A stretch of DNA of 32,000 bases from Edaphobacter aggregans (GCF_003945235.1 NZ_RSDW01000001.1:2970001-3002000), one strand, 5' to 3'. Shown: positions 14,985-32,000, counted from the first letter of the stretch. A program made the numbers and translations. The notes: generated from the sequence alone by a model not told the origin.

Positions 14985-15140
14985 ATGCACGCTCTGATTG
15001 AACCAGTAGCCCTTTGGGGGCTGGTCAAAGAAGATCGAGTGCACGACTCGATCATAGCTCTAGCCTTCCTTGCGATTCTGATAGCTCCCTGCATCGCGGC
15101 GATCTTCGGTAGCTCGTCTGACTCTGAAGAGCCGACCTAG
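14985..15140 (+). CDS. Possible 51-aa single-pass membrane peptide (uncertain)
   Basis: ATG lies 4 nt after GGAGG. The product is MHALIEPVALWGLVKEDRVHDSIIALAFLAILIAPCIAAIFGSSSDSEEPT. Its codon usage is atypical and it is too short for the ORF track. Confidence 0.2.
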   Translation: MHALIEPVALWGLVKEDRVHDSIIALAFLAILIAPCIAAIFGSSSDSEEPT

Positions 15141-17516: not shown

Positions 17517-17732
17517 ATGAAGTACTTGCGCATGAATCTGAAGGTATGTGAAGGGTGTGGAGCGCTTTGGCTCCGCATGGAAACAACAAACGGCGTTTAC
17601 TGCCGGGGATGCTCGCAACGACTGTCGGAGTTTCCGGCACCGCGTGGGAGAAGCAGGGCTGGACGGAAGTCGCGGTTGACGCGGGTTTCGCGATGCCAGG
17701 CGGTCGTCGTGTCAATGGGAGGTGGGCGATGA
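17517..17732 (+). CDS. Small zinc-ribbon protein with a basic tail
   Basis: The product contains CEGC-x16-CRGC, then RGRSRAGRKSRLTR. G/T-ending codons. Its stop overlaps the next start (ATGA at 17729-17732). Confidence 0.55.
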   Translation: MKYLRMNLKVCEGCGALWLRMETTNGVYCRGCSQRLSEFPAPRGRSRAGRKSRLTRVSRCQAVVVSMGGGR

Positions 17733-18229
17733 GCGCAGCTGTGCTGGTTTTGCCCGTGATCTGGGCTACTGAGGCTTTCCATGAGATCCGCGAGGTTCGC
17801 GACGTACGTGAGGTTGCGGAGGTTGAACAACGGCGGAAAGCGGCTCCTGAGCTGGCTTTCTATCGGAAGTACACGGAAGGGCTGCTTCGGCGTTACGTGA
17901 AGATGGCGATGGAGGCTGGACGCGCTCCTTCTCTGCTGGGACGGGAGATGTTCCGGGGGAAGGTGACCAACTACCAGGTGCATGGATTCGACGATGTGGT
18001 GATCTTTGTCCACGACGTGGAGCGATGTCTGGCAAAGCTGGATAGCGAACAGCAGTTGATCCTGGAACGGGTCGCCATGCAGGAGTACACGCAGGGCGAA
18101 GCAGCTGGGTTGGTAGGGTTGCCGTTGCGGACGCTGATCCGGAGGTATGGGGATGCGCTGGATGAGCTGACGGAGGTGTTCCTGGAGCGCAAACTTCTGG
18201 AGCCTTCGAAAAGCTGTCAAGGGGTCTAA
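17729..18229 (+). CDS. Sigma-70-family-like (ECF-size) transcription regulator
   Basis: A region-4-like HTH is present: LDSEQQLILERVAMQEYTQGEAAGLVGLPLRTLIRRYGDALDEL. A region-2-like segment is FYRKYTEGLLRRYV. ATG follows GGGAGGTGG. The longer track start at 17555 overlaps the zinc-ribbon ORF. Confidence 0.6.
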   Translation: MSAAVLVLPVIWATEAFHEIREVRDVREVAEVEQRRKAAPELAFYRKYTEGLLRRYVKMAMEAGRAPSLLGREMFRGKVTNYQVHGFDDVVIFVHDVERCLAKLDSEQQLILERVAMQEYTQGEAAGLVGLPLRTLIRRYGDALDELTEVFLERKLLEPSKSCQGV

Positions 18230-18339
18230 ACTGTGTAAAACTTGCTAAACCATTGATTCAATTGCAAATATTTCTGCCTGGAAGTTGGCATGGTAATTCC
18301 ACTCCAACTGCTATTCTGGAAAGGTAATCAAGAAATGAG

Positions 18340-18378
18340 ACGGGAGAGCGCCTGATGGCTGCTCTCCCGTTTGCTTTT
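18340..18378 (+). terminator. Strong intrinsic terminator between the regulator genes and the structural genes
   Basis: ACGGGAGAGC (18340-18349) pairs perfectly with GCTCTCCCGT (18361-18370), and 3 further bp can form in the loop. The tail is TTGCTTTT. Confidence 0.7.
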
Positions 18379-18388
18379 GGAGGTGGGG

Positions 18389-18739
18389 ATGGAGAGGAAG
18401 CGAGTGAAGGGGCGGTTTGTGAGCGAGGGGGCTGTTGCGGACGAAGAGACGGTGGAGAAGGAGTCGCGGGTGGCGACTCCAAGGCCGCGGTACTGCAGGA
18501 CGTTTGCCCGAAAGCGGGTGGCTGAGGCTCTACCGGAGATCATGGCCAAGTTTGCGGAGGAGGCGAAGAAGGGGAGCATTCAGCATATGAAGATCCTGAC
18601 GAAGCTGGGTGGGCTGGACCAGGGGGATATGCAGGTGGCGAGGAAGCGTCGGCCGAAGAGCATTATGGCGAAGCTGCTGGAGGATTTCGGGAAGCCACAG
18701 GAACAGGAGCGACCACGGACGGGCGCGGATAAGGCGTAA
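18389..18739 (+). CDS. Phage-like hypothetical protein (116 aa, basic)
   Basis: ATG lies 5 nt after GGAGG. G-ending codons. I recognise no family, and a small-terminase role is only a positional guess. Confidence 0.55.
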   Translation: MERKRVKGRFVSEGAVADEETVEKESRVATPRPRYCRTFARKRVAEALPEIMAKFAEEAKKGSIQHMKILTKLGGLDQGDMQVARKRRPKSIMAKLLEDFGKPQEQERPRTGADKA

Positions 18740-18771
18740 CGGTGATCAGAAGGATAACGGCGGATAAGAGC
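18721..18771 (+). repeat. Direct repeat copy 1 (51 bp), spanning the last codons and stop of the 18389-18739 ORF
   Basis: GGGCGCGGATAAGGCGTAACGGTGATCAGAAGGATAACGGCGGATAAGAGC, near-identical to 19478-19529. Confidence 0.85.
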
Positions 18772-18887
18772 GAAACAAAGCAAAATACGGGTGCTCTGTA
18801 CTGCGCAATAAACGATGAGATGAAAGCAGGTCCCCTTCGGGGAAGACAACAAGAGGCAGTGCGAAGAGCGATACAGAGGGAGGGTCA

Positions 18888-19496
18888 ATGGGGCAGGCTG
18901 AAGGGCTGCATCGGCGGTGTGGTGCGGGCCGGCGAGAGGGTTTGCGAGGCGTGGCGGGCCTGGAGATGCGGGCTATGGCGGTGGAGTTTCCCGAGGTGCA
19001 TGGGCATCCGAACCGGCTGCCTTTTGAGGGTGTGCTGACGCTGGTGGATGTGGCCAGCGATAAAGCTCCCAGTGGGGCGCGGGGGCATCGAGTGGTGTTG
19101 TCGAGGGCTGCGGCGGAGGCGGCTTTGCCTAGTCTGCTGGGCATGGCGGTTGATTACAAGGCCGGGTGGGACGGGCATGATGCGAGGCAGAAGTGCGGGA
19201 TTATTACGGCGGCTGAGTTGGATGGGAAGCGGCTGTGTGTCGCGGGCTATCTGTATGCGCGGGACTTTCCAGAGATGGAGGAGAAGATTCAGGTTGAGGG
19301 CGCTATGGGGATGAGCTATGAGCTTGCGGATGCGCATGTGGCTGATCTGCGGGCTTCGATCTGGACGCTGACGCGGGCTACGTTTACTGGTGCAGCGATT
19401 CTGCTGCGGGAGAAGGCGGCTTATCGGAGTACTAGCTTTCGGGTGAAGCGCCGGTCGACCGCGGATGCTCGCGGATGGGCGCGGATGAAGGCGTAG
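18888..19496 (+). CDS. Putative prohead-protease-like protein (function uncertain)
   Basis: The layout FEGVLTLVDVASD...GH..., GHD...CGIITAAELDG..L.V.GYLY and GMSYE resembles HK97-type (S78) protease His/Ser regions. A strong SD, GAGGGAGGG, precedes ATG 18888. ATG 18966 and 18975 are alternatives. Confidence 0.45.
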   Translation: MGQAEGLHRRCGAGRREGLRGVAGLEMRAMAVEFPEVHGHPNRLPFEGVLTLVDVASDKAPSGARGHRVVLSRAAAEAALPSLLGMAVDYKAGWDGHDARQKCGIITAAELDGKRLCVAGYLYARDFPEMEEKIQVEGAMGMSYELADAHVADLRASIWTLTRATFTGAAILLREKAAYRSTSFRVKRRSTADARGWARMKA

Positions 19497-19529
19497 CGGT
19501 GATCAGAGGGATAACGGCGGATAAGAGCA
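19478..19529 (+). repeat. Direct repeat copy 2 (52 bp), spanning the last codons and stop of the 18888-19496 ORF
   Basis: GGGCGCGGATGAAGGCGTAGCGGTGATCAGAGGGATAACGGCGGATAAGAGC. It differs from copy 1 by a 1-nt indel and 2 substitutions, and is preceded by three tandem GCGGATGnnn units at 19461-19490. Confidence 0.85.
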
Positions 19530-19665
19530 AGGACAACAGCAGATGCTGGGTCTCTCTGCTGTGCGAGAGACGTTGAGACTGTCTTTGCTTCGGTCGAGAT
19601 GACGATGTTTTTGGAGTGTCGAAGGAAACAGTAACTGCAACTACGAGAGATGCGATGGAGGATGG

Positions 19666-20055
19666 ATGAGTTTTGTGAGTGTGTTGGAGGCTGTGGGGAA
19701 GGGCTTTGAGAAGGGCTTGAAGTGGGCTGTGACGTATGCGGTTCCGGTGGAACGGTTGGTGGGGCTTCTGTTTCCTTCGGCGGCTCCGGTGGCGAAGGAG
19801 GTAGCGGATGCTACCTCGCTGATTCAGAGTGCTGTGCTGCTGGTGGAACAGAAGTATGCGGCCAGTGGCGTGCAGAGCGGGACCGGGGCGCAGAAGTTGA
19901 ATGAGGTGATGCTGCTGACGGAAGCGGCGGTGACGGGGCTGCTGGCGAAGGCCGGTGTGCAGGTGGATTCGGCTTATTTGCAGAGTGTGATTTCGGCTGT
20001 GGTTGCGATTTTGAATGTGCAGAGTGCTTCTGCGCCGGTGACTGCCACGGCTTGA
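19666..20055 (+). CDS. Phage-like hypothetical protein, distantly resembling the soluble part of LL-H-type holin-family proteins
   Basis: ATG lies 5 nt after GGAGG. The pattern SAVLLVEQKY...GTGAQKLNEVM...QSVISAVV recalls the LL-H family consensus from memory. There is no clear TM helix. Confidence 0.5.
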   Translation: MSFVSVLEAVGKGFEKGLKWAVTYAVPVERLVGLLFPSAAPVAKEVADATSLIQSAVLLVEQKYAASGVQSGTGAQKLNEVMLLTEAAVTGLLAKAGVQVDSAYLQSVISAVVAILNVQSASAPVTATA

Positions 20056-20107
20056 ACAAAGGTTCAGTGGGTGGACTGATGTAACAGAGAACGACGAGGA
20101 GAGAGCA

Positions 20108-20509
20108 ATGGATGTAGAGATGAAGGATGAGCTTGGTGCGTTTGTGCAGCGGCTTGCTGATGCGGCTGGTCTGCTGGAGCAGGCTGTTGAGAAGCTGGCT
20201 GCTCGGCAGAGTGACGCTGAGGCTTCGATTGGGCGGGTTTCGGCTACTGTCGAGGCGGAGATTGAGGAGCGGCTGGCCGCTGCTGAGGCTCGTATTGCGG
20301 AGTTGAAGGCTTCTGCTGCTTATGTGCCTACTACAGTTACACAAGGGCGGAAAACTCTGCCGGTTTCGATGGCTAATCTGCTGGCGAAGCAAGGGGTGAC
20401 TGTGGATTCGATGGAGGCGGGAGCTGTAGATGCTGCTTTGGTCAGCTTGAGTCTCGAACAGCGGATTGCGGTGAAGGCTCAGTTGATGCGGGCTGGTTTG
20501 CTGGGTTAG
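20108..20509 (+). CDS. Scaffold-like coiled-coil protein
   Basis: A 133-aa Ala/Glu/Leu-rich helical protein located directly upstream of the capsid gene. SD GGAGAGAG. Confidence 0.5.
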   Translation: MDVEMKDELGAFVQRLADAAGLLEQAVEKLAARQSDAEASIGRVSATVEAEIEERLAAAEARIAELKASAAYVPTTVTQGRKTLPVSMANLLAKQGVTVDSMEAGAVDAALVSLSLEQRIAVKAQLMRAGLLG

Positions 20510-20590
20510 GCGACCGCGGGTTTTCGCGGATGCACGGATTTTAAATGTTGGGCGTGGCTGCGGCTGCGCCCTTTCTTTTTGAAAGGGAGA

Positions 20591-21565
20591 ATGATGAACG
20601 CGAAGTTTACTGAGATTCATGCGGCTGCGGATTTTATTGGGCCTGGTGCGGTTGAGGTTCCTCTATATCAATCGGAGATTACGGACCTCGTCCGTCGGCG
20701 GGGCGTTTTTGGGCAGAGGATCAAGCAGGTTCCTGCTACGGGACATCCTTCGAGATTTTTTGAAGAGACGGCGATTCCTTCGCCTTCGGCTTCTTCAGGA
20801 TTCGTCGATCCGCGCAATATTGTTGCACCGCTGGTTACTCCGACTCGTGTGGAGCGTAGTGTTCCGCTGAAGGCGTTGGTCGCGCAGATCAACTACAACT
20901 TGTTCGATATTGAGCTGGGTCAGCAGCAGAGCCAGTTCGCTTATCTGCAGGCGAAGGATCTTGCCGATACTGTTGACGGCGTTCTGCGTACGCATGACGT
21001 TGCGCTTTGGAATGGTTCGGATACTAGTCTGAGCTCTCCGACGACTGCGCAGTATTATGGCGCGGGCGCGCAGATTGCCGCGGGTGGGAATACGGTGACG
21101 ATCGGCACGGGCCAGAGCATTGTTGATGGCTTCAAGTCGACGATTGCACAGATGGTTGCGAATAGCTCGTATGGTGTTCGTCCTACGGCTATCTATGCGA
21201 ATCCGGTGCTGCTGGATTTGATTGATCGTGAGATGAAGGCCGAGTTCAATGTCGTTCTGAATACGAAGGAGATTGCTGCTGGTTTGAGCGTGAAGACGCT
21301 TTCGACGCAGGCGGGCGAGATTCCTCTGATTCCGGAGTGGACGCTGAGCTATACGGGTACTCCTGGATCGGGCTCGGCTGTGCTGCCGGCTTATATCGTG
21401 ACGGAGGATTTGATTGAGTATCACTGGCTGAGCGATCCGAATCCTCGGATCTTCCAGCTTGGCGTTCCGGGTTCGCTTGCTTCGCAGTATGTGGTGGTGA
21501 AGTTTGGCGGGCTTGTGGTTAAGGGTGCGAATTATGCGCACTATCAGGTACTGGTTGATCGCTAG
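20591..21565 (+). CDS. Major capsid protein (HK97-fold type, inferred)
   Basis: The size (324 aa), the position after the scaffold-like gene, and the strong terminator downstream all fit. The segment LKALVAQINYNLFDIELGQQQSQFAYLQAKDLADTVDGVL resembles the spine-helix region of T7/HK97-type coat proteins. ATG follows GGGAGA. Confidence 0.65.
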   Translation: MMNAKFTEIHAAADFIGPGAVEVPLYQSEITDLVRRRGVFGQRIKQVPATGHPSRFFEETAIPSPSASSGFVDPRNIVAPLVTPTRVERSVPLKALVAQINYNLFDIELGQQQSQFAYLQAKDLADTVDGVLRTHDVALWNGSDTSLSSPTTAQYYGAGAQIAAGGNTVTIGTGQSIVDGFKSTIAQMVANSSYGVRPTAIYANPVLLDLIDREMKAEFNVVLNTKEIAAGLSVKTLSTQAGEIPLIPEWTLSYTGTPGSGSAVLPAYIVTEDLIEYHWLSDPNPRIFQLGVPGSLASQYVVVKFGGLVVKGANYAHYQVLVDR

Positions 21566-21584
21566 TCGTTAGTCGTGGGATAGG

Positions 21585-21675
21585 AAGGCATACCCCAGGG
21601 GCTGAAGCCCCTTTCTTTTTTCTTTTTGCGGCCAGGAGAGACCCAAGGCTAAAGCCCTTGGGTACCTAGAAGCAA
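21585..21675 (+). repeat. Composite two-hairpin repeat, copy A
   Basis: The sequence ...CCAGGGGCTGAAGCCCCTTTC...GAGAGACCCAAGGCTAAAGCCCTTGGGTACCTAGAAGC is homologous to 24418-24497. Confidence 0.7.
21597..21627 (+). terminator. Intrinsic terminator after the capsid gene
   Basis: AGGGGC-TGAA-GCCCCT is followed by TTCTTTTTTCTTTTT. Confidence 0.75.
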
Positions 21676-21726
21676 GAGCTTAGGGGGTGGTGGGGCCTAT
21701 GCAGTTATGGGTGGGCTAATCGTGCA

Positions 21727-21765
21727 GGGGCCGGTGTTTGTTGCCGGTCCCTGTTGCTTTTTGTG
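21727..21765 (+). terminator. Second hairpin with T-tract before the next ORF
   Basis: GGGGCCGG (21727-21734) pairs with CCGGTCCC (21744-21751), including one G-U pair. It is followed by TGTTGCTTTTTGT. Confidence 0.5.
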
Positions 21766-21787
21766 AGTTTTCATTTGGAGGTGTGGT

Positions 21788-22411
21788 GTGGGCTATTTGT
21801 TGCCTTCGGAGTATGTGGAGTATGGGCTGGGGGCGGAGACTTCGGACGGTTGGGTGACGATGGCTTCGGCTTTGATGGAGGCGCATTGCAGGAGGCCTAG
21901 TCTGCTGGTGACGCAGTATGTGGAACGGATGCGGTTGACGGCTGGGGCGCAGACGGTTCGGTTGAGCTATCGTCCGTTGGCTGCTGCGGTGGGGGCTGTT
22001 TCACCGTTGGTGGGGGTGAATGTGCGGTATGGGCGGCCTCGACGAGGGGAGATGACTGATCCTGTTCGTGAGCAGCTTGCCTTCGCGTTCGGCGTGCCGG
22101 GGAGTCGGAATGCGCTGGATCCGGCGAGTGTAGATGTGAATTTGAGCACCGCGGAGTTGACGTTTCCGCAGAACTTTTTGGGGATTAATTACAACGAGGT
22201 CGAGGTGACGTATACGTCGGGGGTTGTGACGGTTCCGGCGGCGGTGAAGGTGGCTTGTGCGCAGATTGTGAAGAATGCGCAGGCGACTCCGGCGATGAAT
22301 GTGAAGAGCAGCAAGATGGACACGATGCAGATGCAGTACTTCAGCGGGGTGCTGGTGGATCCGCAGGTGCAGGCGTTGCTGCGGCCTTATGTAGCGGAGA
22401 GGCTCGGGTGA
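21788..22411 (+). CDS. Phage-like structural protein, head-tail connector/adaptor position
   Basis: GTG start after GGAGGTG. 207 aa. The call rests on gene position only. Confidence 0.5.
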   Translation: MGYLLPSEYVEYGLGAETSDGWVTMASALMEAHCRRPSLLVTQYVERMRLTAGAQTVRLSYRPLAAAVGAVSPLVGVNVRYGRPRRGEMTDPVREQLAFAFGVPGSRNALDPASVDVNLSTAELTFPQNFLGINYNEVEVTYTSGVVTVPAAVKVACAQIVKNAQATPAMNVKSSKMDTMQMQYFSGVLVDPQVQALLRPYVAERLG

Positions 22412-22415
22412 GACG

Positions 22416-22838
22416 ATGGCGGATTTGATGGTGGCGGTTCGTCGGGCTGCGGATGTTTTGCTGCGCGGGTGTGGCGGACGGACGGTTTTGCTGCGGGTGC
22501 CTGCTCCGGGTGTGGCCGGTAATTCGGCGGAGCAGTTGGGGTTGACGGTTCCTCGGTTTCAGGATGTGGAGTTGGGGCCGGTGGTGTTTCGCAGGACTCG
22601 GGTGAATGCGGCGGAGGGGAAGGCGGTGCAGCGCGAGGTGCTGGTTTCGGCTTCGGCCGTGGAGGTGCTGACTGGGTCTTTGGGTTTTTCTTCGGCTAGT
22701 GTGCTGTTTGCAACTGCGTTTGGGGTGCTGGTGGATGAGGCGCTGCTGACGATTGTGTCGGCTACGGAGATGGAGGCTGGCGGCGTGGTGTGTGGGTATC
22801 GGCTGTTGTTGCGTGAGGCTGCTGCGCTGGAGGTTTAG
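22416..22838 (+). CDS. Phage-like structural protein (140 aa)
   Basis: ATG lies 4 nt after the previous stop. G-ending codons. I recognise no family. Confidence 0.55.
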   Translation: MADLMVAVRRAADVLLRGCGGRTVLLRVPAPGVAGNSAEQLGLTVPRFQDVELGPVVFRRTRVNAAEGKAVQREVLVSASAVEVLTGSLGFSSASVLFATAFGVLVDEALLTIVSATEMEAGGVVCGYRLLLREAAALEV

Positions 22839-22919
22839 GGCGAAACGGAAGGGACCGCGGATTGGCCGGATGATCGCGGATTAAAAACAGGCCGATTTGT
22901 TACTGAAAGGGTTACGTTT

Positions 22920-23426
22920 ATGCAGAATGCGAAGGATACGTTTTACGTCACGCTGCAGGGCAGGCTGGAGGCAGTGAATCCGGCGCGGACGGTGGTGGTG
23001 CGAGGAATGACTCGGCCTGGCGTGCTGGTGGAGGAGAACGAACTGGCTTCTGCGTATGAGCCTGTGGATGCGTTTCGGTTGCGGTGGACTGGGTTGAAGG
23101 TGGATGCGCAGGGGTCGCTGCCGCTGGTGACGATGGAGTGCGAGATTCGGTATGCGACGGATGGTAGCTCCGGCAATGGCGGGATGGATCGCGGGCGGTT
23201 GCTCGCGGCGATGGATGGGGAGCTGGTGAGCGCGGTGGGGGCGGCTCCGCAGAGTGTGGTGAAGATGAATTATTCGGGTGTGAGTGCAGGGATGGCTCCG
23301 GTGGCGATGGAGACGAATGTGTTTTGGGGCGATGTGGTGTTCGGTGCGACGACGGTAGAGGGCGAGCGGTTGGAGCGGGTGGCGACGGTGACGGTGTGGA
23401 GCTACCAGGAAGCGGGTGAGCTGTGA
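22920..23426 (+). CDS. Phage-like structural protein (168 aa, neck/tail-completion position)
   Basis: ATG ORF whose stop overlaps the next start (GTGA at 23423-23426). Confidence 0.55.
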   Translation: MQNAKDTFYVTLQGRLEAVNPARTVVVRGMTRPGVLVEENELASAYEPVDAFRLRWTGLKVDAQGSLPLVTMECEIRYATDGSSGNGGMDRGRLLAAMDGELVSAVGAAPQSVVKMNYSGVSAGMAPVAMETNVFWGDVVFGATTVEGERLERVATVTVWSYQEAGEL

Positions 23427-24403
23427 GTGGGGCTGGGAGTGGATTGGTTGGGGCGGTGGCTCCGGTAGCTCGGCGTGTGAGGGCTTACTTTGCGCCGGTG
23501 AATCGTGCGGCTGGGGTGCCGACGGTTTTCGATGCGGCGCAGATGGGAGGGTTTGGGCTGGATTCGCCGCCTGCTCCGTGGGTGGATTTGGGGTGGTGCA
23601 AGGGATTTGCTCGGAAGAGTGCGACGAAGGTTGGGGCGCTGCGGACGGGTGCTCCGGCGATTGTGGCCAGCCAGGTGCGGACTGAAGTGGAGGCCACGGT
23701 TCAGCTGGAGTTTGAGAGCTGGGGGAAGTTGCAGATGGCTCTGACGGCTGGGGCGCAACAGATGAATTTGTTGCTAACGGCTAGTGGCGCGGCGGCGAAT
23801 GGGAGTGGTGGAGTTGCTGCTGCTCCAGTTGCGCTGGTGGCGGGTTCTACGGCTACTGCGTTGAATGTGGGGGCTACGGCTGCTGCGGGATTTGCTGTGG
23901 GGAATCTGGTTGCTGTGGATGTGGACTACTCGGGGCAGGTGGGGTTTGTGGGGAGTGGCGTGAGCGGGGCTTATGTGCGGGCTTCGGCGGATGTGGGCGG
24001 CGATGTTAATTATGTGCGGCGGGTTTCGCTGAATGTTGGGCGGGTGGTTTCGATTGCGGGTGGGGTGCTGACGCTTGGGGCGCCTTTGCTGGCGGGAGCT
24101 CCGGCCGCGGGGATGCAGGTGAGCAGGCTGGCTGGGTTTGTGGATCGTGAGGGTGGTGGGTTCTTTCAGGAGTGGTCTGGACTCTTTGTAATGGATGGGG
24201 AGCAGGGGGATCGGGTGATCTATCACTATCCGCGGTTGCAGGCGATGCAGGGAGCTGCGGAGGCTCTTGAGGTTGTGGAGGCTCCTTTGGAGCGAGTGCG
24301 GCTGGTAGGGGCTTTTCGGGCGCTGCCGGTGAAGGATGCGAATGATGGGGAGATGTGCGTTTGTTTTCGGAGTTATCTGCCGGGGGTTATGCGGGCGGTT
24401 TAG
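23423..24403 (+). CDS. Putative major tail (tube)-like protein with an Ala/Gly/Val-rich inserted domain
   Basis: The N-terminal pattern YFAPVN...PTVFDAA...WVDLGWCKGF...GAP..VASQVRTEVEATVQLEFESW recalls tail tube families. It is followed by a terminator, like the capsid gene. Confidence 0.45.
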   Translation: MSGAGSGLVGAVAPVARRVRAYFAPVNRAAGVPTVFDAAQMGGFGLDSPPAPWVDLGWCKGFARKSATKVGALRTGAPAIVASQVRTEVEATVQLEFESWGKLQMALTAGAQQMNLLLTASGAAANGSGGVAAAPVALVAGSTATALNVGATAAAGFAVGNLVAVDVDYSGQVGFVGSGVSGAYVRASADVGGDVNYVRRVSLNVGRVVSIAGGVLTLGAPLLAGAPAAGMQVSRLAGFVDREGGGFFQEWSGLFVMDGEQGDRVIYHYPRLQAMQGAAEALEVVEAPLERVRLVGAFRALPVKDANDGEMCVCFRSYLPGVMRAV

Positions 24404-24417
24404 GTGAGGGTGGACGA

Positions 24418-24497
24418 AAGGCAGACTCCAGGGGCTAACGCCCCTTTTCTTTTGCTACGGAGAGAGACCCGAGGCTGAAGCCTCAGTGCCTAGAGGC
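24418..24497 (+). repeat. Composite two-hairpin repeat, copy B
   Basis: The sequence ...CCAGGGGCTAACGCCCCTTTTC...GAGAGACCCGAGGCTGAAGCCTCAGTGCCTAGAGGC is homologous to 21585-21675. Confidence 0.7.
24430..24455 (+). terminator. Intrinsic terminator after the tube-like gene
   Basis: AGGGGC-TAAC-GCCCCT is followed by TTTCTTTTGCT. Confidence 0.7.
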
Positions 24498-24607
24498 AAA
24501 CTGCGACGACAAATGCAACGGCGAAATGCGGGGGTCTCTCCACTGCGCAAACAGGCATTGGCAACGGTAAGTGCAGGCATGGATGAAGGATGAAGAGGAG
24601 AATATCA

Positions 24608-27600
24608 ATGCGTTGGAAGCTTAAAGGATGGACGCTGGTTGGTATGTTGCTGGCGTTTCCGGGGATTTTGTGGGTGACTGTAGCTGCGGTGGCGCAAATT
24701 GCTACTACGCAGGTTACAGATACGATCTATCGTGCGGATGGGACGCCTGCTACAGGTACTGTGATTGTTAGCTGGCCGGCGTTTACTACTTCGGCTGGAC
24801 AGGCGGTGCCTAGCGGAAGCACTTCGGCGACTATACCGGCGGGTGGACTGTTGAGTATGAGCCTCGTTCCGAACGAGGGTGCTATGCCGATGGGGACATA
24901 CTACACGGCTGTGTTTCATCTGGATGATGGGACTGTGAGCCGGGAGTATTGGGTGGTTCCGGTGAGCACGACTGCGGTGCAGGTGAGTTCGATTGAGAGC
25001 ACGGTGCTGCCTACCTCGGTAGCGATGCAGACGGTGAGCAAGGCGTATGTGGATACGGCGATTGCGGCGGCGGTATCGGGACATCCGCTGGATACATCGA
25101 CTCCGTATGTACAGAAGAGCGGCGATACGATGACGGGGCCGCTGGTGCTGCCGGGGGATCCGACGGCGCCGTTGCAGGCGGTGGATAAGCAGTATGTGGA
25201 CGTGAGTGTTACCGGAGTTGCGAGCGGGCTCTCGCAGAAGGTGTCTACGCTGCCGGGTGCTACTCAGACGGTAGCTCAGCCTCCAGGGACGGTGCTGGAG
25301 GTGAACAATCTGAACGGCACGGAGTATGCGAGCCAGTACCTGAGCGGGACCGGCAACAACGGCATCGCGAACGCCGTGTCGAGCGCGGATTGTGCGGGCG
25401 GTTGCGAGGTGAAGGCAGAGCAGAACTATGCGTCGAACGAGAATTACGCGCCGACGCAGTGGAACGACAAGACGCATGTAGAGGATACGCGGAAGGGACA
25501 GCGGTTCGACAGCTATCTGAACCCGGAGAGTGTGATGATGCCGGGTCAGGAGACCGGGCAGGTGATCGATGTGGTGTCGACACGAAGCGGAGCCAGTGTG
25601 CTTCAGGAGACGACATCCGCTTTTCCAACTTCGACCGGACTGGCGGTCTTCCATAGTGCGTTGACGGGAGGATCGAATCAGTTTCCGCAGAATCTTGAGA
25701 GCCAGATTCCTTATTTCAAGAGCACCTATGAGGCGTTGGCTGTGACGGGTACGTACAACACGCAGGGTCAGCATGTACTGGCTCCTATGGGGACGACCTG
25801 CTATGGCGTGGGAGACTGCCTGATCGGGTCGCAGACGCTGACGGCATCGGGCGGCTTTCGGGACAATGCGGACGAGGGGACACATCCGTTCGATCTGCAG
25901 GTGCGCGAAGATACGAATGTCTTTCAGGGGACTTGCTCGAGCGGGTGCACGCCTGGGTCGACTTCGGTGAAGGTTGCTACGACTTATGCGCCGGGGACGC
26001 AGGGCGATGGGCGGTTTCTGATCGATAAGAACCCGGCTAAGGTGTTAAGCGCTGGTGTGCTGACGGGCGTTGGCGCGGCGGGGAATCATGCTTCGGCTGC
26101 GTTCAGCGGGAGCGGATTTCCGGTGAGCGTGTTCTTTCAGACGGCGCAGACGCTGAGCTCGCAGGTGAACAACATCGCTCCGGGAACGGTGACGTTTGCG
26201 ATCGCGACGAGCGGTGTGCCGACGGGTTATGCGACGAATACGGCGGCGGCTCCGCAGACGAGCGGTGTGGCTTGCGTGACTGATCCGGTGAATGCTTACA
26301 CTGCGCAGAACTACGAGATGGCGAACTACACGGTGGTGGATGGGACGCATCTGCAGATGACGCTGAACAAGACGCATGTGTCGGGCGCGAGCGTGGCTAT
26401 GGCCGGCCTGTGCGGCTATGGCCTGGAACAGACGGTGGATACGACGGCGGGGATTCGACAGGTATTTCCTGTGGTTGGATCGTACTCTGCCACTGGGCTT
26501 TACTACGTTGGCGGGGAGACTCCGATTGTGGGAGCGATGGGGTCGACGTCGGCGTTTGCGAATGTGACGCTGAACATTGCTTCGATTGCACGTAATGGGA
26601 ATGTGGTGACGGTGACGACGGCGGGCAATCTGCCTGTGGATGTAAATGGGCTGAGCCTGACGGTCGCGGGTGTGGCGGACTCGAGCTACAACGGTGCCTA
26701 TACCGTAACGACGACGGGGCCGAATACGCTGACCTATGCGCAGAACGGCGCGAACAGCACGAGCACGGGCGGCACGCTGTCGTTGATGACGGGAGGGTAT
26801 GCGCTGTATCCGATGGCAGAGGTGTTGAGTGTCTTCAACACGGCGACCAAGAGCGTGGATGGGCAGATGTCGCTGGCTCCGAACACAGTGGCGTGGGCGA
26901 CGAACGACGTTGTGGAGCAGCCACACTACTACCAGGAGATGGTGGACGGGGACACGGAGTTTGTAGGGCAGACGACTCCGCGGCCGGGCGTGATTCTGCG
27001 TGCGGGTATTCAGTATGAGGGCAACAATGGGCCGGGCTTGCAGGGCTGGGGCGTGACGAACGCAGTGCCGGCTTCGAACTATTTCGGCAATGGCGGTACG
27101 CACTCGCCTCCGGATATGGCTTACCTGGCGAAGGGTATATGGCTGCGGACGATGGTTGCAGACGCCGGAGAGCAGGCGGTGTTCACGATTCACTGCAACT
27201 CGCATGGGTGCGGCAAGTGGAACTCGGGCTACAACCTGTTTGAACTGGATTCGAGCGTGGGAACGGACACGGTTGGGTTTCAGACGACGACGAGCACACT
27301 GTCGCTGAACCTGAGGGGAACGGGCTATTCGTTCACACCCCAGGGCTTTAACGCAGGAGTAGTGAATGCGACGACGCTGAATGGAGCGATCAGTGCAGCG
27401 AATATTTCGAGCGGTACGGTGAACGCGGCGCGGCTGCCGGTTTTTGGAGCATCGGGCGCTGGACATGCGGCAGGTGCGGTGCCGGATCCGGGTTCGACAG
27501 CAGGAACGACGCGGTATCTGCGTGAAGATGGGACGTGGGCTGCGCCGTCGGCTACGGTCGGCTCGACGACAGTGTCCGGAGCCACGGTGTCCGGCACAGC

Positions 27601-29209
27601 TACAGCGGACTACAACTTTCTGCAGGGATCGGGGAGCGTTTTGACCGACACCAGCGGGAACGGAAATGATGGAACGCTGGGAACAGGAGCAGCAGCGCCG
27701 AGTTGGACTTCGACAGGGCTGAGCTTTGCGCCCGGACAGGGTGTGTCGTTGCCGGCAACGCTGAACGGGACACAGACCTTTGTTCTTGGGATTTACATCA
27801 ATCCGCTGACGTCGGGACCGCAAACGAATAATCCGTATCCGGTGCTGCTTACATCGTCGCTGCCTTCGGCTGGCGGGTTCAACCTGATGTACCAGATGAC
27901 GGACGCTACGGGGAATTTCATCAACCTGACCTATGCTCCGACGCTGTTCGTCAATGCAAACCACAGGACGGATGCGCCGAATCTTCTGTCGGGTTTCCAT
28001 GTGCTTGCGGTGACACTGGGGACGGGCGGGAGCAGCCTGGACCATGTCTACATCGATGGAGTGGAGGTGGCGAACTATCGCTTGCAGGGAGCTTCTGCTG
28101 GAGTACAGACTTCGGGGAATCTGTTTGTCGGGTCGAGCGGATTGTCGACATGGACGGGGTCAGGGTTCAATGGCACGTTCTACAGGCTGCGGACTTACGC
28201 GACGCAACTGGCGGCGACGGATGTTGCGACGGTGAGTGCGGCGATCCGCAACGAGATTGCTTCGCGCGGCGTGTTGACGTCTCCGCAGCAGCTTGGATTT
28301 GCCACGCCACAGCTCCATGCGATCGGTGACTCGATCACGAATGGCGCTGGAGTGGCGACGCCCTGGTCTTCGCTGCTTTCGCTGGCACGCCAGCCTGCGT
28401 ATACGGTGACGAACTGGGGCATCACCGGGGTTGGTCTGCAGGCTCTGAACGGATCGGAGCCGAATCGCGTGGCGGAACGCTGCCAGACGAACTCGGGACC
28501 TGCTCTGGCGTTGGTGCTTGCCGGGACGAACGACTTCCAGCTGGGAAATGGAACGACGGCGACAGCAGTGATGGGCTCGCTGATGGGTGAAGTGCAGGTG
28601 CTGAAGCAGGCTGGCTGCAAGGTGTTCGTCGGGACGATGATTTCGCGCGGCGGCAATGATATGAGCGGGACAAACTACGATGCGCAGAAGGACGCTTATG
28701 ACGGGTTGATTCTGTCTTCGGCCAAGACTGGAGGCGCGGACGGAGTGATCGATTTCGCGGCTGATCCGCGGCTCGGTGCGGACGGTGCGAATGCGAACTC
28801 GACGTACTTCCAGTCGGACACGATTCACCCGACGCAGGCTGGACAGGCTTTGCTGGCTGCGGCGGCGAGCAATGCGCTGAACTACGCTTACGGCTATAAC
28901 GATTCGAATCCGCATAACGTGACGGCGCTGCCGTACAGCATGACTGCGGGGGATGGATACGTGAGCCTAGCGGGTGTGACGGGAGCGGGTACGGTGACGC
29001 TGCCGGATTGCACGGGGCAGAGCGGGGCGACGTATCGGATTGGGAATCCGCAGTCGGCTTATGCGGTAACGGTGGCTCCGCTGAATGCTTCGCAGCTGAT
29101 CAATGGGCTGGCGTTCGGGACTGCGGTGACGGTGCCGGCGAATGGGTCGGTGACGCTGCGGGATGTGCCGAATCCGAAGACGGTTTCGGGTTGCCATTGG
29201 GAGATGTAG
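24608..29209 (+). CDS. Giant tail-fibre/tailspike-like protein with hydrophobic N-terminus, LamG-like domain and SGNH/GDSL esterase domain
   Basis: Fibre motifs are present: KAYVD...SGDTMTGPLVLPGDPTAPLQAVDKQYVD and GAVPDPGSTAGTTRYLREDGTWAAP. A LamG-like block spans about 27600-28250 (SGNGNDGTL...LFVGSS...FNGTFYRLRTY). SGNH blocks are GDSITNG (Ser codon 28331-28333), AGTNDF and DTIHPT (28817-28828). ATG 24608 lies 7 nt after AGGAG. Confidence 0.8.
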   Translation: MRWKLKGWTLVGMLLAFPGILWVTVAAVAQIATTQVTDTIYRADGTPATGTVIVSWPAFTTSAGQAVPSGSTSATIPAGGLLSMSLVPNEGAMPMGTYYTAVFHLDDGTVSREYWVVPVSTTAVQVSSIESTVLPTSVAMQTVSKAYVDTAIAAAVSGHPLDTSTPYVQKSGDTMTGPLVLPGDPTAPLQAVDKQYVDVSVTGVASGLSQKVSTLPGATQTVAQPPGTVLEVNNLNGTEYASQYLSGTGNNGIANAVSSADCAGGCEVKAEQNYASNENYAPTQWNDKTHVEDTRKGQRFDSYLNPESVMMPGQETGQVIDVVSTRSGASVLQETTSAFPTSTGLAVFHSALTGGSNQFPQNLESQIPYFKSTYEALAVTGTYNTQGQHVLAPMGTTCYGVGDCLIGSQTLTASGGFRDNADEGTHPFDLQVREDTNVFQGTCSSGCTPGSTSVKVATTYAPGTQGDGRFLIDKNPAKVLSAGVLTGVGAAGNHASAAFSGSGFPVSVFFQTAQTLSSQVNNIAPGTVTFAIATSGVPTGYATNTAAAPQTSGVACVTDPVNAYTAQNYEMANYTVVDGTHLQMTLNKTHVSGASVAMAGLCGYGLEQTVDTTAGIRQVFPVVGSYSATGLYYVGGETPIVGAMGSTSAFANVTLNIASIARNGNVVTVTTAGNLPVDVNGLSLTVAGVADSSYNGAYTVTTTGPNTLTYAQNGANSTSTGGTLSLMTGGYALYPMAEVLSVFNTATKSVDGQMSLAPNTVAWATNDVVEQPHYYQEMVDGDTEFVGQTTPRPGVILRAGIQYEGNNGPGLQGWGVTNAVPASNYFGNGGTHSPPDMAYLAKGIWLRTMVADAGEQAVFTIHCNSHGCGKWNSGYNLFELDSSVGTDTVGFQTTTSTLSLNLRGTGYSFTPQGFNAGVVNATTLNGAISAANISSGTVNAARLPVFGASGAGHAAGAVPDPGSTAGTTRYLREDGTWAAPSATVGSTTVSGATVSGTATADYNFLQGSGSVLTDTSGNGNDGTLGTGAAAPSWTSTGLSFAPGQGVSLPATLNGTQTFVLGIYINPLTSGPQTNNPYPVLLTSSLPSAGGFNLMYQMTDATGNFINLTYAPTLFVNANHRTDAPNLLSGFHVLAVTLGTGGSSLDHVYIDGVEVANYRLQGASAGVQTSGNLFVGSSGLSTWTGSGFNGTFYRLRTYATQLAATDVATVSAAIRNEIASRGVLTSPQQLGFATPQLHAIGDSITNGAGVATPWSSLLSLARQPAYTVTNWGITGVGLQALNGSEPNRVAERCQTNSGPALALVLAGTNDFQLGNGTTATAVMGSLMGEVQVLKQAGCKVFVGTMISRGGNDMSGTNYDAQKDAYDGLILSSAKTGGADGVIDFAADPRLGADGANANSTYFQSDTIHPTQAGQALLAAAASNALNYAYGYNDSNPHNVTALPYSMTAGDGYVSLAGVTGAGTVTLPDCTGQSGATYRIGNPQSAYAVTVAPLNASQLINGLAFGTAVTVPANGSVTLRDVPNPKTVSGCHWEM

Positions 29210-29282
29210 TGGGTGGCTTGGGATGGGCCGGGGGAGTTGTCTCCGGCCTGTCCCGGCAAGCGATATGGATGGATGGTGTGGG

Positions 29283-30845
29283 ATGTCGAGGGATGGGTGG
29301 GCTGTCAGGGATGTGGACGAGTTGCTGCGGCTCGGACTCGAGATGAAGAAGAGGCCGGAGCTGATGCTTGCCATGGCCGAAAATATGCTGCGAGTGCGGG
29401 ATCGGAATGGGTTGATACAGCCGCTGCGGGCGAATGCGGTGCAGCGGGCGTTTGAGGAGGCTCGGGGGCAGCGGAATATTGTGCTGAAGGCTCGTCAAAT
29501 GGGCGTGACGACGTGGGTGGCGGCGAGATTTTTTTTGAAGACGATTACGGCGCGCGGGGTGCTGACGGTGCAGGTGGCTCATACGCGGGAGGCTGCGGAG
29601 GGGATCTTCCGGATGGTGCAGCGATTTTGGGAGTGTCTGCCGGAGGAGCTGCGAGAGAACGGCCTGGTGCGGAGCAAGGCGAATGTCGGGCAGATGATCT
29701 TTCCGGCGCTGGATAGCGAGTTTCGGATTGTGAGTGCAGGCGATGAGGGCGCTGGGCGCGGGTTGACGATTCAGAATCTGCACTGCAGCGAGGTAAGCCG
29801 GTGGCCGGGCGATGCGGGCGAGACGCTGGCGGGATTACGGGCGGCGATGAGTCCGGGGGGCGAGATGGTGCTGGAGTCGACGCCGAATGGAGCTTATGGG
29901 TGCTTTTATCAGGAGTGGGTGGCGACGGGTTTGAAGGTCGGCGAGTCGGCGAGTCAGCAGGGCGATGCAGTGGTGCGGCATTTCTTTCCCTGGTGGATGG
30001 AGGAGGATTATGTCGCTGCTGCGGTTACAGATTTGCGGGAGGATGAGTTGGCGCTGATGTCGGCGCATGGCTTGACGGCGGAGCAGATTGGGTTTCGGCG
30101 GGGGCTGGAGGCGAGTTATCGCGGGCTACGGTCGCAGGAGTTTGCTGAGGATGCGGAGAGCTGCTTCAAGGCTACGGGTGAGTGCTGCTTTGAGGTTCAG
30201 GCGGTCGAGGCTCGGTTGAAGGAGCTGCAGGAGCCCGTTGCGTGTCGGCGCGGTGGGGCTTTGCAGGTTTGGCTGCCTCCGGTTGCGGGGAAGGAGTATC
30301 TGGTTGCGGTGGATACGGCGGGTGGTGGCGCGGATGGGGACTTTGCGGCGGTGCAGGTGATCGAGATGGTGTCGGGGATGCAGTGCGCGGAGTTGCAGCA
30401 GAGGATTGGGACGCTGGAGCTGGCAAGAGTTTCGGCGGAGCTGGCAAGGGAGTATGGCGGGGCTTTGATCGCGGTGGAGAGGAATAATCATGGCGCTGGT
30501 GTGCTGGCTTATCTGGATAGCGTTGAGCGTTACGCTCGGGTTTATGAGCAGGGCGGAGTCGCGGGATGGTTGACGACGGCGGGGAGCAAGCCGGGGATGG
30601 TGAGCCGGATGGGGGCTTTGCTGGCAGAGTCCCCCTGGTTGTTTTTTAGCAGGAGGTTGTTGGGGGAGTGCCGGACTTTTGTTTCGATGGCCGGGGGACG
30701 GACTGGGGCTGCTAGTGGGGCTCATGATGATTGTTTGATGGCTATGGCGATTGGGCAGGCGGTTCGGGCGGAGTTGGCGGGGAAGAAGAAGGATGGGCCG
30801 AAGCTAAGGGAGGGGTGGGACTCGCGGGCTTTTTGGGTTGGGTGA
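29283..30845 (+). CDS. terL: Terminase large subunit
   Basis: Motifs: Walker-A-like VLKARQMGVTTW, Walker-B-like IQNLHCSEV, coupling motif LESTPNG, and nuclease acidic motifs VAVDTAGGGADGDFAAV and AHDDCLMAMAIG. The start is uncertain (ATG 29265, 29283 or 29343). Confidence 0.85.
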   Translation: MSRDGWAVRDVDELLRLGLEMKKRPELMLAMAENMLRVRDRNGLIQPLRANAVQRAFEEARGQRNIVLKARQMGVTTWVAARFFLKTITARGVLTVQVAHTREAAEGIFRMVQRFWECLPEELRENGLVRSKANVGQMIFPALDSEFRIVSAGDEGAGRGLTIQNLHCSEVSRWPGDAGETLAGLRAAMSPGGEMVLESTPNGAYGCFYQEWVATGLKVGESASQQGDAVVRHFFPWWMEEDYVAAAVTDLREDELALMSAHGLTAEQIGFRRGLEASYRGLRSQEFAEDAESCFKATGECCFEVQAVEARLKELQEPVACRRGGALQVWLPPVAGKEYLVAVDTAGGGADGDFAAVQVIEMVSGMQCAELQQRIGTLELARVSAELAREYGGALIAVERNNHGAGVLAYLDSVERYARVYEQGGVAGWLTTAGSKPGMVSRMGALLAESPWLFFSRRLLGECRTFVSMAGGRTGAASGAHDDCLMAMAIGQAVRAELAGKKKDGPKLREGWDSRAFWVG

Positions 30846-30901
30846 GGAGGGCATCGCGGAAGTGCAAGAGCAAAAGCACTCGGGTCGCTTCGCTCCCCTC
30901 G

Positions 30902-31000
30902 GAAATGCGGGGGTTCTTCGCTGCGCTCAGAATGACAAGCAAAAAGTAACAACGACAACTACAAAAGCAGAAGCAGATCCCCTTCGGGGATGACAACTAG
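30902..31000 (+). repeat. Composite short-repeat element (D plus E families)
   Basis: AAATGCGGGGGTTCTTCGCTGCGCTCAGAATGACAA has copies at 18783, 19541 and 24523. The hairpin ATCCCC-TTC-GGGGAT followed by GACAAC has a copy at 18829-18850. Confidence 0.6.
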
Positions 31001-31094
31001 AAAGGCAACCGCAAAAGCAACGACAACGGCACACTATAACAAAGGCGGCACATTACGACGGTGGCTAGTATTCTGTTGCGGGGGAGTTTCGGGC

Positions 31095-31961
31095 TTGGCG
31101 GTTTTGGCGGTGCAGGCGATTCGTCGGATGCGGGGTGGGGCGCAGAGCCAGTTGATGCTGGGGGCCGATGGGAAGCTTTGGGTGGTGAAGTTTCAGAATA
31201 ATCCGCAGCATTTGCGGGTGTTGGCGAATGAGTTGATCGCGACTCGGCTGGCGGCTGCGGTAGGGTTGACCGTTCCACAGAGCGATGTGGTCGAGGTGAC
31301 GGAGTGGCTGGTGGCTAATTCTCCTGGGATGCATGTCGAGTTGCCTCGGGGGCAGAGGGAGCAGTATTCGGCGGGGCTGCAGTTTGGGTCGCAGTTTGTG
31401 GGCGGGCTGATGCCTGGGCAGGTGGTGGATTATCTGCCCGAGCAGCAGCTGGATGAGGTGAGGAATCTGGCGGAGTTTGCGGGGATCCTGTGCATCGACA
31501 AATGGGCGGGTAACTGTAATGGGCGGCAGGCGGTGTTCGAGCGGAGGTCGAGGGAGCGGAAGTATCGGGTTACGTTTATCGATCAGGGATTTTGCTTCAA
31601 TGCGGGGGAGTGGACGTTTCCGGATTCGCCGCTGCGGGGGGTGTATCAGCGGAATCGGGTGTATGCGGGCGTAACGGGGTGGGAGAGCTTTGAGCCTTGG
31701 CTGAGTCGAGTGGAGGAGATGCGGGCCGATACTCTTTGGGGGATCGCGGAGGTGGTTCCGCCGGAGTGGTATGGCGGGGATACCGTGGTGATCGAGCGGT
31801 TGATGGAGCAGATGCTGATGCGGCGGTCGCGGGTGAGGGAGTTGATAGGGTGGTTTCGGGATTCGAATCGGGAGCCTTTCCCGATGTGGGAAAAGAAGGT
31901 GAGTGCGGTTGTGCCGAGGCAGTTTGCTGAGTTGAGTGTGGCGGGTAAGTTTGTAATGTAG
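31095..31961 (+). CDS. HipA-like kinase-fold protein, possibly with a degenerate catalytic loop
   Basis: The sequence GGAQSQLMLGADGKLWVVKF...LANELIATRLAAAVGLTVP, IDKWAGNCNGRQ, FIDQGFCF resembles HipA-like kinase families. TTG 31095 lies 8 nt after GGGGGAG. The track start at 30990 lies inside a repeat element, and ATG 31128 is an alternative. Confidence 0.55.
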   Translation: MAVLAVQAIRRMRGGAQSQLMLGADGKLWVVKFQNNPQHLRVLANELIATRLAAAVGLTVPQSDVVEVTEWLVANSPGMHVELPRGQREQYSAGLQFGSQFVGGLMPGQVVDYLPEQQLDEVRNLAEFAGILCIDKWAGNCNGRQAVFERRSRERKYRVTFIDQGFCFNAGEWTFPDSPLRGVYQRNRVYAGVTGWESFEPWLSRVEEMRADTLWGIAEVVPPEWYGGDTVVIERLMEQMLMRRSRVRELIGWFRDSNREPFPMWEKKVSAVVPRQFAELSVAGKFVM

Positions 31962-32000
31962 TGGATGGTTGTTGGATTGCTGAAGAAAAGGACAAGTCAA

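Follow-up and report, generated by a model that had tools for sequence, protein, structure and literature searches.

The 32,000-nucleotide stretch of the Edaphobacter aggregans genome analysed here (GCF_003945235.1, NZ_RSDW01000001.1:2970001-3002000; hereafter the window) carries 14 co-oriented open reading frames (ORFs) on the + strand from ~17.5 kb to its right end, as listed in a first-pass annotation made from the sequence alone. The window holds the left ~15.6 kb of a phage-derived element of ~20 kb with host genes at both ends. The element encodes a complete head-and-packaging set, comprising a protease-like protein, a scaffold-like protein, an HK97-fold capsid, a portal, a large terminase (TerL) and an adaptor, along with four conserved tail or neck proteins, an esterase fibre, local regulators and a defence pair. 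This cluster was probably fixed in an ancestor of the Acidobacteriaceae and inherited vertically, and would act like a gene transfer agent (GTA) or a defective-phage particle of the PBSX type. The structural, packaging and defence genes within the window are the following.

18966-19496 (ORF from 18888), + strand: prohead-protease-like protein, conserved core starting MRAMAVEF
20108-20509, + strand: scaffold-like protein, 133 aa, named for its position directly upstream of the capsid gene
20594-21565, + strand: major capsid protein, HK97 fold, 323 aa, assigned from a predicted structure and transitive Pfam matches
21788-22411, + strand: head-tail adaptor (phrog_442, 4e-14; phrog_1161, 1e-5)
22416-22838, + strand: 140-aa neck/tail protein, position kept in all loci, dN/dS 0.34, no family match
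22920-23426, + strand: 168-aa neck/tail protein, position kept, dN/dS 0.27, no family match
23423-24403, + strand: 326-aa structural protein, conserved, dN/dS 0.18
24608-29209, + strand: fibre/tailspike-like protein, 1539-aa ORF (about 1533 aa from 24608), with an SGNH/GDSL esterase domain
29379-30845 (open from 29163), + strand: large terminase, TerL (phrog_2, 2e-22)
30990-31961, + strand: HipA-like Ser/Thr kinase (PF20613, 36.8 bits, 3e-9)

Relatives were compared at the best 80 loci of 538 TerL relatives in a one-genome-per-species collection (TerL identity 67-92%). Their titles name Edaphobacter, Granulicella, Tunturiibacter or unnamed Acidobacteriaceae, the exceptions being three broader labels (Terriglobales, Acidobacteriota) and one metagenome-assembled genome (MAG) labelled Rhodanobacteraceae. 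Loci carry L numbers; L001 is the closest genome locus, with a TerL 92% identical to that of the window. A further set comprised 28 IMG/VR contigs carrying this capsid gene, ~24 of which show the cluster gene order. Two metagenome contigs, L116 and L117, were retrieved with a coding 44-mer and are 96-98.5% identical to window positions 23809-32000 at the nucleotide level; a metagenome scan using the terminal 52 nt of the window gave no match. Exact-protein look-ups of two window proteins also found nothing, in an index that does not contain the genome of the window. The Pfam gathering cut-offs were 39.1 bits for PF04860, 27 bits for PF20613 and 22.6 bits for PF11236.

The window capsid had no match in Pfam, PHROGs, NCBIfam or PDB sequence searches, nor among 50,697 phage records. 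Within its family, 10 of 35 diverse members matched PF17236 (SU10_MCP; best 3.9e-8). An AlphaFold model built from a diverse alignment (pLDDT 81, pTM 0.77) gave 370 Foldseek matches in the PDB at E ≤ 0.001, and the listed top 50 were all capsid or encapsulin shell proteins. The best match was SPO1 (1e-13), and the capsids of HK97, SU10 and RcGTA, the GTA of Rhodobacter capsulatus, also appeared in the range from 1e-13 to 1e-9. The predicted fold and the SU10_MCP matches of relatives confirm the product of 20594-21565 as an HK97-fold major capsid protein. It is 85-95% identical across loci and belongs to a very large, narrow family (4095 clusters at 90% identity; 319 at 50% among 1.84 billion representatives) whose members are all annotated as hypothetical.

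A lone homologue of this capsid, 74-75% identical to it, was observed at 10001-10969 in three IMG/VR contigs of 74-214 kb (L109, L111 and L112). Its neighbours are of jumbo-phage type (phrog_1735 at 1e-260, DNA ligase, polynucleotide kinase, CCA-adding enzyme, RNA ligase), and no other gene of the element lies nearby. The homologue may reflect an exchange of genes between a large phage and the domesticated element.

The other head proteins were assigned through profiles and position. The protease-like protein had no direct Pfam, PHROG, NCBIfam or PDB profile match. Its profile corresponds to residues 11-169, the N-terminal half, of a 316-aa protein (hhalign 94.9%, E 4e-8) that is encoded between portal and capsid in the distantly related phage-like contig L084 and itself weakly matches PF27290 (YonD_N). 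The protein also has invariant His, Ser and Asp columns. The scaffold-like protein is a candidate by gene position; it gave weak coiled-coil-type matches only and is kept across loci (dN/dS 0.19). The adaptor profile matches a 193-aa protein encoded after the capsid gene of L084 (hhalign 91.8%). The best phage match of TerL was Roseobacter phage CRP-7 (28.5%), and Stx2 phages of the 933W type were also found, the matches lying in the 26-28% range. By these comparisons, no sequenced phage is close to the element: the capsid has no match, and identity reaches at most 28.5% for TerL and 23% for the portal. The capsid, TerL and protease-like labels of the first-pass annotation are thus upheld, the last by its counterpart between portal and capsid in L084, as are the HipA-like label (PF20613) and the fibre label discussed below. 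Among its three neck-size proteins, that at 21788-22411 proved to be the head-tail adaptor, and the other two remained without a family match.

The portal gene lies just outside the window. In L116 and L117, the gene for a DUF3037 protein starts ~0.1 kb and the portal gene ~1.0 kb past position 32000. The initial 294 aa of the portal are encoded in the conspecific contig L117, at 90% identity. The L001 portal (13481-14770 in L001) is a full-length match to PF04860 at 182.7 bits (1.3e-53), above the cut-off, and to phrog_2662 at 4.5e-39. The gene order in L001 is TerL, HipA-like kinase, DUF3037, portal, a 534-aa and a 210-aa ORF, purE, purK, efp and ruvX. Neither of the two ORFs had a family match; in most species they form one ORF of ~770 aa. 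The lack of a portal, which had been counted among the oddities of the cluster, therefore holds for the window and not for the element: it is a window-edge artefact, because DUF3037 and then the portal follow position 32000 in near-identical contigs. The alternative offered at the time, that the element continues beyond the window, is confirmed by the portal and the ~770-aa gene.

The other absences extend to the whole ~20-kb element. With every ORF between the host flanks assigned or searched, none of the loci yielded a recognisable integrase, replication gene, endolysin or tape measure, and no att-like repeats spanning the ends were found in the three loci that contain both ends. Among the portal, integrase, replication and lysis genes looked for downstream, the portal alone was found, and the region does not turn into an ordinary prophage there.

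The spacer between DUF3037 and the portal contains tandem repeats with a 14-nt period in L028 (13394-13449, GGTTGTTGGTTGC-like) and in L054 (14055-14108, (GAGTTGT)n). The last bases of the window (tggatggttgttggattgc) resemble these repeats.

The element occupies one chromosomal position across genera, between an alpha/beta-hydrolase gene near glyA and the purE-purK pair. On the left side, the window shows the following border.

13503-14780, - strand: serine hydroxymethyltransferase (SHMT, glyA side), host gene (PF00464, 9.5e-166)
15137-16345, - strand: ABHD18-like (alpha/beta) hydrolase, host gene
16362-17072 (ORF to 17150), - strand: Xre/Cro-type helix-turn-helix (HTH) regulator, divergent, at the left border of the element

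The same left flank (hydrolase or SHMT, plus HTH regulator) was found in the four loci extending that far (L028, L054, L081 and L083). Of the ~70 loci that reach far enough on the right, 64 have purE after the ~770-aa gene and 57 have purK. Gene order is identical in the 80 loci as far as the fetched flanks extend, except where genes are deleted. The deletions at this conserved locus are large and independent: L081 (Edaphobacter aggregans JQKI01000001.1) keeps capsid through fibre and has lost TerL through portal, while in L028, L054 and L011 the stretch from the capsid to the 326-aa gene is gone and that from TerL to the ~770-aa gene remains. The MAG MFD04463.bin.2.174 contains the element twice, as L005 and L035; since each has its own purE/purK, this looks like a mixed bin, not a duplication.

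These data bear on the simplest explanation, an ordinary temperate prophage of which the 32-kb window happens to miss the portal, the integrase and the modules for replication and lysis. The portal does lie outside, and members of the group have been listed as proviruses, once as 'likely active' (PMC5900883, PMC11924767). Against this, purE/purK come after the portal and the ~770-aa gene in 64 of ~70 loci and host genes abut the regulator on the left. No locus has a recognised integrase, replication gene or endolysin, and the search for att repeats gave none. The same locus is used across genera, divergence tracks that of the host and dN/dS stays below 0.35, as shown below. We consider an ordinary prophage scarcely credible.

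Comparison with more distant relatives clarified the gene order. IMG/VR contigs with 75-81% capsid identity encode, in this order, the fibre-like protein, TerL, HipA-like kinase, DUF3037, portal, protease, scaffold, capsid, adaptor and the 140-, 168-, 326- and ~770-aa proteins. In these canonical-order relatives, the ~770-aa gene directly follows the 326-aa gene. The order in distant relatives is a circular permutation of the canonical order, and that of the Acidobacteriaceae differs by a single translocation of the block from protease to the 326-aa gene. The placement of TerL after the fibre, noted in the first-pass annotation, was thus correctly seen. The T7-type late region which it had brought to mind finds no support: the order in relatives is a permuted canonical one, and TerL is nearest to those of CRP-7 and the Stx2 phages. 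Because distant relatives share the fibre-TerL order, this arrangement is ancestral in the group and does not represent a T7-like layout.

All genes of the element are under purifying selection. Median dN/dS was 0.08 for the capsid, 0.13 for the HipA-like kinase, 0.14 for the portal, 0.17 for DUF3037, 0.18 for TerL and 0.18-0.34 for the remaining genes, compared with 0.13 for purE and 0.10 for purK; dS was similar in element and host genes. More than 90% of the ORFs are intact. Pairwise identity averaged 87.5% (capsid), 75.7% (portal) and 69.9% (TerL), against 75.3% (purE) and 80.2% (purK). That capsid, portal, TerL, protease and adaptor are constrained is an argument for the continued production of DNA-filled heads.

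Divergence of the element follows that of its host. Per-gene divergence correlated with that of purE/purK at r = 0.71-0.88, the exception being the nearly invariant capsid (r = 0.44). In a Mantel test on 41 loci, with purE and purK as host markers, the correlation between element and host was r = 0.866, a value reached in 0 of 5000 permutations; these markers are physically linked to the element.

Base composition agrees with that of the host, with a third-position GC content (GC3) of 0.685 in the element and 0.681 in host ORFs. Third-position G greatly exceeds C in the element (G3/(G3+C3) 0.72-0.92), and a weaker bias of the same kind is seen in purE/purK of the relatives. GC skew is very strong and flips near 15-16 kb of the window, from about -0.1 to -0.27 on the left to +0.2 to +0.44 on the right, tracking the switch of the coding strand. 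A compositional signature (G-over-C bias, amino-acid cost) was tried as a diagnostic and rejected, the bias being shared by purE/purK and the cost being no different.

The HipA-like kinase at the end of the window and the DUF3037 protein next to it match the two components of a candidate PADLOC system: the kinase matches PDC-M66A (1.2e-8), and its DUF3037 partner in L001 matches PDC-M66B (2.3e-9) and PF11236 (6e-22, 78.6 bits). By domains and adjacency, the two genes probably constitute a HipA-like/DUF3037 defence pair (PDC-M66, DS-6/HipAD). For the DS-6/HipAD pairing, phage defence has been shown experimentally, and the kinase was found to be neutralised by the DUF3037 protein (PMC13092281, PMC12548924). 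The pair sits between TerL and the portal in nearly all relatives, including distant ones. In L107 and L113, TerL is directly followed by the portal; the pair is missing and the head genes are retained.

The presence of this pair raises the possibility that the region is a cryptic prophage remnant kept for the HipA-like/DUF3037 genes, for a secreted esterase 'fibre' or for both, with the structural genes as passengers. The PDC-M66 matches and the antiphage activity of the same pairing (PMC13092281, PMC12548924) fit such a remnant, and the pair is among the better conserved genes (dN/dS 0.13-0.17). An export-like signal on the fibre and the differing gene subsets retained by deletion variants point the same way. 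Passengers would decay, yet no gene of the locus is under stronger constraint than the capsid (dN/dS 0.08), which evolves more slowly than purE/purK, and portal, TerL, adaptor and protease are intact and constrained in more than 60 species. The two loci that lack the pair still retain the head genes. A remnant of this kind is, in our judgment, quite unlikely.

The tail region is the least legible part of the element. The 326-aa product, first labelled tube-like, had no match in Pfam (searched with 22 orthologues), PHROGs or a PDB profile search and no hhalign match to the tube protein of L084, leaving that label unconfirmed. When the neck and tail proteins were compared with the L084 tail module by hhalign, the adaptor was the sole link. 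The ~770-aa protein had no match in Pfam, PHROGs, NCBIfam or PDB profile searches.

The fibre is better characterized. It contains a GDSL/SGNH esterase domain at aa 1244-1421 (PF13472, 2e-14) and matches phrog_5240 'tail fiber' at 4e-4. Its N-terminus (window 24590-24720) resembles a Sec signal, with M-x-WK-x-x-GWTL, ~20 hydrophobic residues and A-x-A|Q, and this feature is kept in eight species (L001, L003, L012, L020, L030, L048, L062 and L075). The signal-like segment is followed by the classic tail-fibre motifs KxYVD and GDTMTGPL, which together with the esterase domain and the phrog_5240 match bear out the initial fibre label. The fibre is the fastest-evolving gene of the element, at 2.3 times the host rate. 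In L102, the gene upstream of TerL encodes a different protein of 805 aa, which also has a signal-peptide-like start.

Rapid evolution of the fibre is expected of a target-recognition protein in an arms race, and would suit a particle that serves another end than gene transfer: a PBSX-like killer of competitors, or an anti-phage device whose structural proteins disrupt the assembly of infecting phages. The hallmarks of such a device equal those of a GTA, namely a fixed locus with a conserved head, tail and fibre and without genes for replication or integration. The defence pair embedded in the cluster fits as well, and the lone 74% capsid homologue in the jumbo-phage-like contigs hints at interplay between phage and element. 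On the other side, the constraint on TerL and portal points to a need for DNA packaging, although PBSX packages DNA too, and no PBSX-like sheath, tape measure or lysis genes were found in the element. We regard this explanation as unlikely.

A helper-dependent satellite, of the type of capsid-forming phage-inducible islands, would make its own capsids and rely on a helper for replication, tails or lysis. The size of ~20 kb, the head and packaging genes without a replication or lysis module and the unrecognisable tail genes are compatible with it. However, known satellites have an integrase and replication or primase genes, which the element lacks, and they are patchily distributed at att sites, whereas the element has a single locus across genera and diverges along with its host. 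It also has its own TerL, fibre and several tail-region genes. A satellite is accordingly very unlikely.

Upstream of and among the head genes lie putative regulators and small proteins, and terminator-like structures follow the capsid gene.

17517-17732, + strand: small zinc-ribbon-like protein (CxxC...CxxC), first gene of the rightward operon, weak family matches
17729-18229, + strand: sigma-70 region-4-like regulator, ~166 aa, its start overlapping the stop of the zinc-ribbon gene
18389-18739, + strand: 117-aa protein (122-aa ORF from 18371), with a conserved ~50-aa core CR.F.RKR.AE..P.I...F...A..GS..H
19666-20055, + strand: 129-aa Ala/Val-rich protein, weak phrog_608 'holin' match (E = 0.007)
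21597-21754, + strand: two terminator-like hairpins 3' of the capsid gene, consensus matches

The divergent HTH regulator matches PF13443 (E = 0.011) and phrog_4 'transcriptional repressor' (4.7e-4), has the conserved start MNFQDLHEL and has orthologues of 60-74% identity at the same position in L081, L083, L054 and L088. An interpretation as a CI/LexA-type repressor with an inactivated S24 protease domain was dropped, the alignment with lambda CI being limited to the HTH. The zinc-ribbon-like protein is 56-66% identical in L028, L081, L083 and L088. For the sigma-like regulator, the similarity to region 4 that had suggested its name is present and weak, all matches falling below the curated cut-offs (Sigma70_r4_2, 7e-4; phrog_1740, 4e-4; NCBIfam sigma-E-like, 2e-6); orthologues occur in L083, L028, L087 and L088. 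No host regulator sites were identified, the regulators seen being the element-encoded HTH, zinc-ribbon and sigma-like proteins. Neither tRNA genes nor Rfam families were found in the window.

The 122-aa protein, whose orthologues are 33-64% identical, had no Pfam, PHROG, PADLOC or NCBIfam match, nor did three of the orthologues; by size only, it is a candidate small terminase. The 129-aa protein has a hydropathy maximum of just 1.54, and a homologue lies directly upstream of TerL in L096 and L097; it is a candidate small terminase, holin-like protein or scaffold-related protein. The motif LLAK(A/Q)GV(Q/T)VDS is common to the 129-aa protein, where it is C-terminal (19939-19971), and the scaffold-like protein (20378-20410; repeat D3).

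Several repeats were observed between the genes. A direct repeat of ~62 nt at 18710-18771 and 19456-19528, with a 41-nt core that is 95% identical, spans the 3' ends and stops of the 122-aa and protease genes and so brackets the protease gene. The same intergenic spaces hold other repeats elsewhere (81 nt in L057, a 53-nt hairpin in L088, 36 nt in L014). A role of these repeats as conserved operators was rejected, as they are species-specific. The first of the two post-capsid hairpins has a near-copy at 24430-24445, after the 326-aa gene (repeats D12/D14). Paired intergenic modules of ~70 nt are seen at 21585-21656, after the capsid gene, and at 24418-24482, after the 326-aa gene, each with a GC-rich hairpin and a T-run. 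Judging from their form and position, they may serve as attenuating terminators and thereby control in what ratio the most abundant proteins are made.

Several features of a GTA are found together at this locus: a stable chromosomal position with vertical descent (with the caveat of linked markers), purifying selection and no genes for self-propagation. Those of a functional temperate prophage are missing, as there is no integrase or att site, no replication or lysogeny module and no lysis cassette, and a single locus is used across genera. The earlier preference for a GTA-like or defective element over a complete temperate phage is therefore supported by the fixed locus, by the order shared among ~80 loci and by purifying selection. 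In a GTA-like cycle, the divergent HTH regulator and the sigma-like factor would control the operon, and a fraction of cells would express it. Proheads would be assembled on the portal and matured by the protease, and the terminase would fill them with DNA. This DNA would have to be chromosomal, because the element cannot excise or replicate. A short tail without a tape measure would attach to the head together with the esterase fibre, whose target for binding or deacetylation would be the thick exopolysaccharide that characterises these bacteria. Release would proceed through functions encoded elsewhere.

Several points weigh against a GTA-like particle. In the literature searched, there is no report of particles, packaged DNA or transfer for these bacteria. 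No small terminase, holin or endolysin was identified in the element, and packaging specificity and particle release consequently lack an explanation. The tail cannot be reconstructed, since the 140-, 168-, 326- and ~770-aa proteins have no recognisable homologues. The predicted signal-peptide-like N-terminus of the fibre is unexpected for a virion protein assembled in the cytoplasm. Because the host markers are linked to the element, the co-divergence signal would also arise from homologous recombination of the whole region. The function of the element is dispensable, as some lineages carry large internal deletions. Finally, the embedded toxin-antitoxin-like pair alone could favour retention of the region.

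A more specific version of the GTA-like reading can be put forward tentatively. The element is possibly an independently evolved GTA, the first for Acidobacteriota, and would then represent a new lineage of viriforms that goes back to the ancestor of the Acidobacteriaceae and, in another gene order, of other Terriglobales. It would combine a tail without a tape measure, an esterase fibre directed at exopolysaccharide and a built-in HipA-like/DUF3037 toxin-antitoxin defence module, and would mediate routine DNA exchange among highly abundant bacteria of acidic soil and peat.

Acidobacteriota are dominant in many soils, grow slowly and are hard to manipulate genetically. To our knowledge, few independent GTA lineages exist, and we know of none in this phylum. 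If the particles are real, they would provide a mechanism for horizontal gene transfer in soil, present in most Acidobacteriaceae, and a possible genetic tool for these bacteria. The retention of the defence pair alongside TerL and portal also raises the question of coupling between domesticated particles and kinases of the abortive-infection type.

Regions of this group have been recorded before. Eichorst et al. (2018) described 'Cluster 153' acidobacterial prophages, including a region at 60-90 kb of scaffold00005.5 of Acidobacteriaceae bacterium KBS 89, and classed predicted prophages with virion genes as 'likely active' (PMC5900883). The KBS 89 region overlaps our locus L015 (67,897-89,246). 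The Tunturi virus study of 2025 placed the Granulicella MAG record OY843766 in a widespread 'group (ii)' of Terriglobales proviruses (PMC11924767); locus L061 belongs to this record, for which the paper gives no coordinates. The Cluster 153 and group (ii) proviruses appear to be the same element as that described here. A Sphagnum virome paper reported several shared phage-like regions without excision or replication modules; one of them, in an Acidobacteriaceae genome, may or may not be this element. Estimates of lysogeny for the phylum are inflated, because viromics studies count these regions as proviruses, once as 'likely active'. This correction to provirus counts applies whatever the function of the element, and IMG/VR holds at least 28 contigs with its capsid gene.

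The present description differs from the Cluster 153 and group (ii) papers, which give no fixed glyA/purEK locus, module absences, selection, host co-divergence or GTA-like reading; nor did the literature searched yield any other paper that describes the locus as fixed, gives the pattern of selection or reads the element as GTA-like. Among phages, the SU10-type capsids (PF17236) and the terminases of 933W/Stx2 phages and CRP-7 are the nearest recognisable relatives; they are very distant, and their other gene content differs. Compared with DS-6/HipAD (PADLOC PDC-M66), the defence pair shows identical domains and order, namely a PF20613/PF07804 kinase with an adjacent PF11236 protein after it. 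It differs in that the profile matches are modest (1e-8 and 2e-9), that DS-6B has a DUF1829 domain, none being detected in the pair of the element, and that the pair is wedged between terminase and portal.

PBSX of Bacillus is likewise a chromosomally fixed defective phage kept among related species, which packages host DNA and cannot propagate. Unlike the element, PBSX is myovirus-like, with a sheath, a tape measure and its own lysis genes, and is found in a far narrower clade; no homology between the two was detected. From RcGTA and the related alphaproteobacterial GTAs the element is separated by the lack of any specific sequence kinship, its capsid being no nearer to that of RcGTA than to those of many phages. 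The tail of RcGTA is of the siphovirus type and includes a tape measure, its small terminase can be recognised and its genes stand in the canonical order; in the element, known here from its genes alone, the order is permuted and a defence pair is embedded. With no tape measure or small terminase, a permuted order and a capsid alike at the HK97-fold level only, it falls outside the RcGTA-like family (Rhodogtaviriformidae). Nevertheless, the two share an HK97-fold capsid, that of RcGTA being among the fold matches (E 2e-10), and a head-tail-packaging cluster of ~15-20 kb without integrase or replication genes. Both have also descended vertically within a large clade, are held under purifying selection and have occasionally been lost, and both have their lysis genes outside the cluster.

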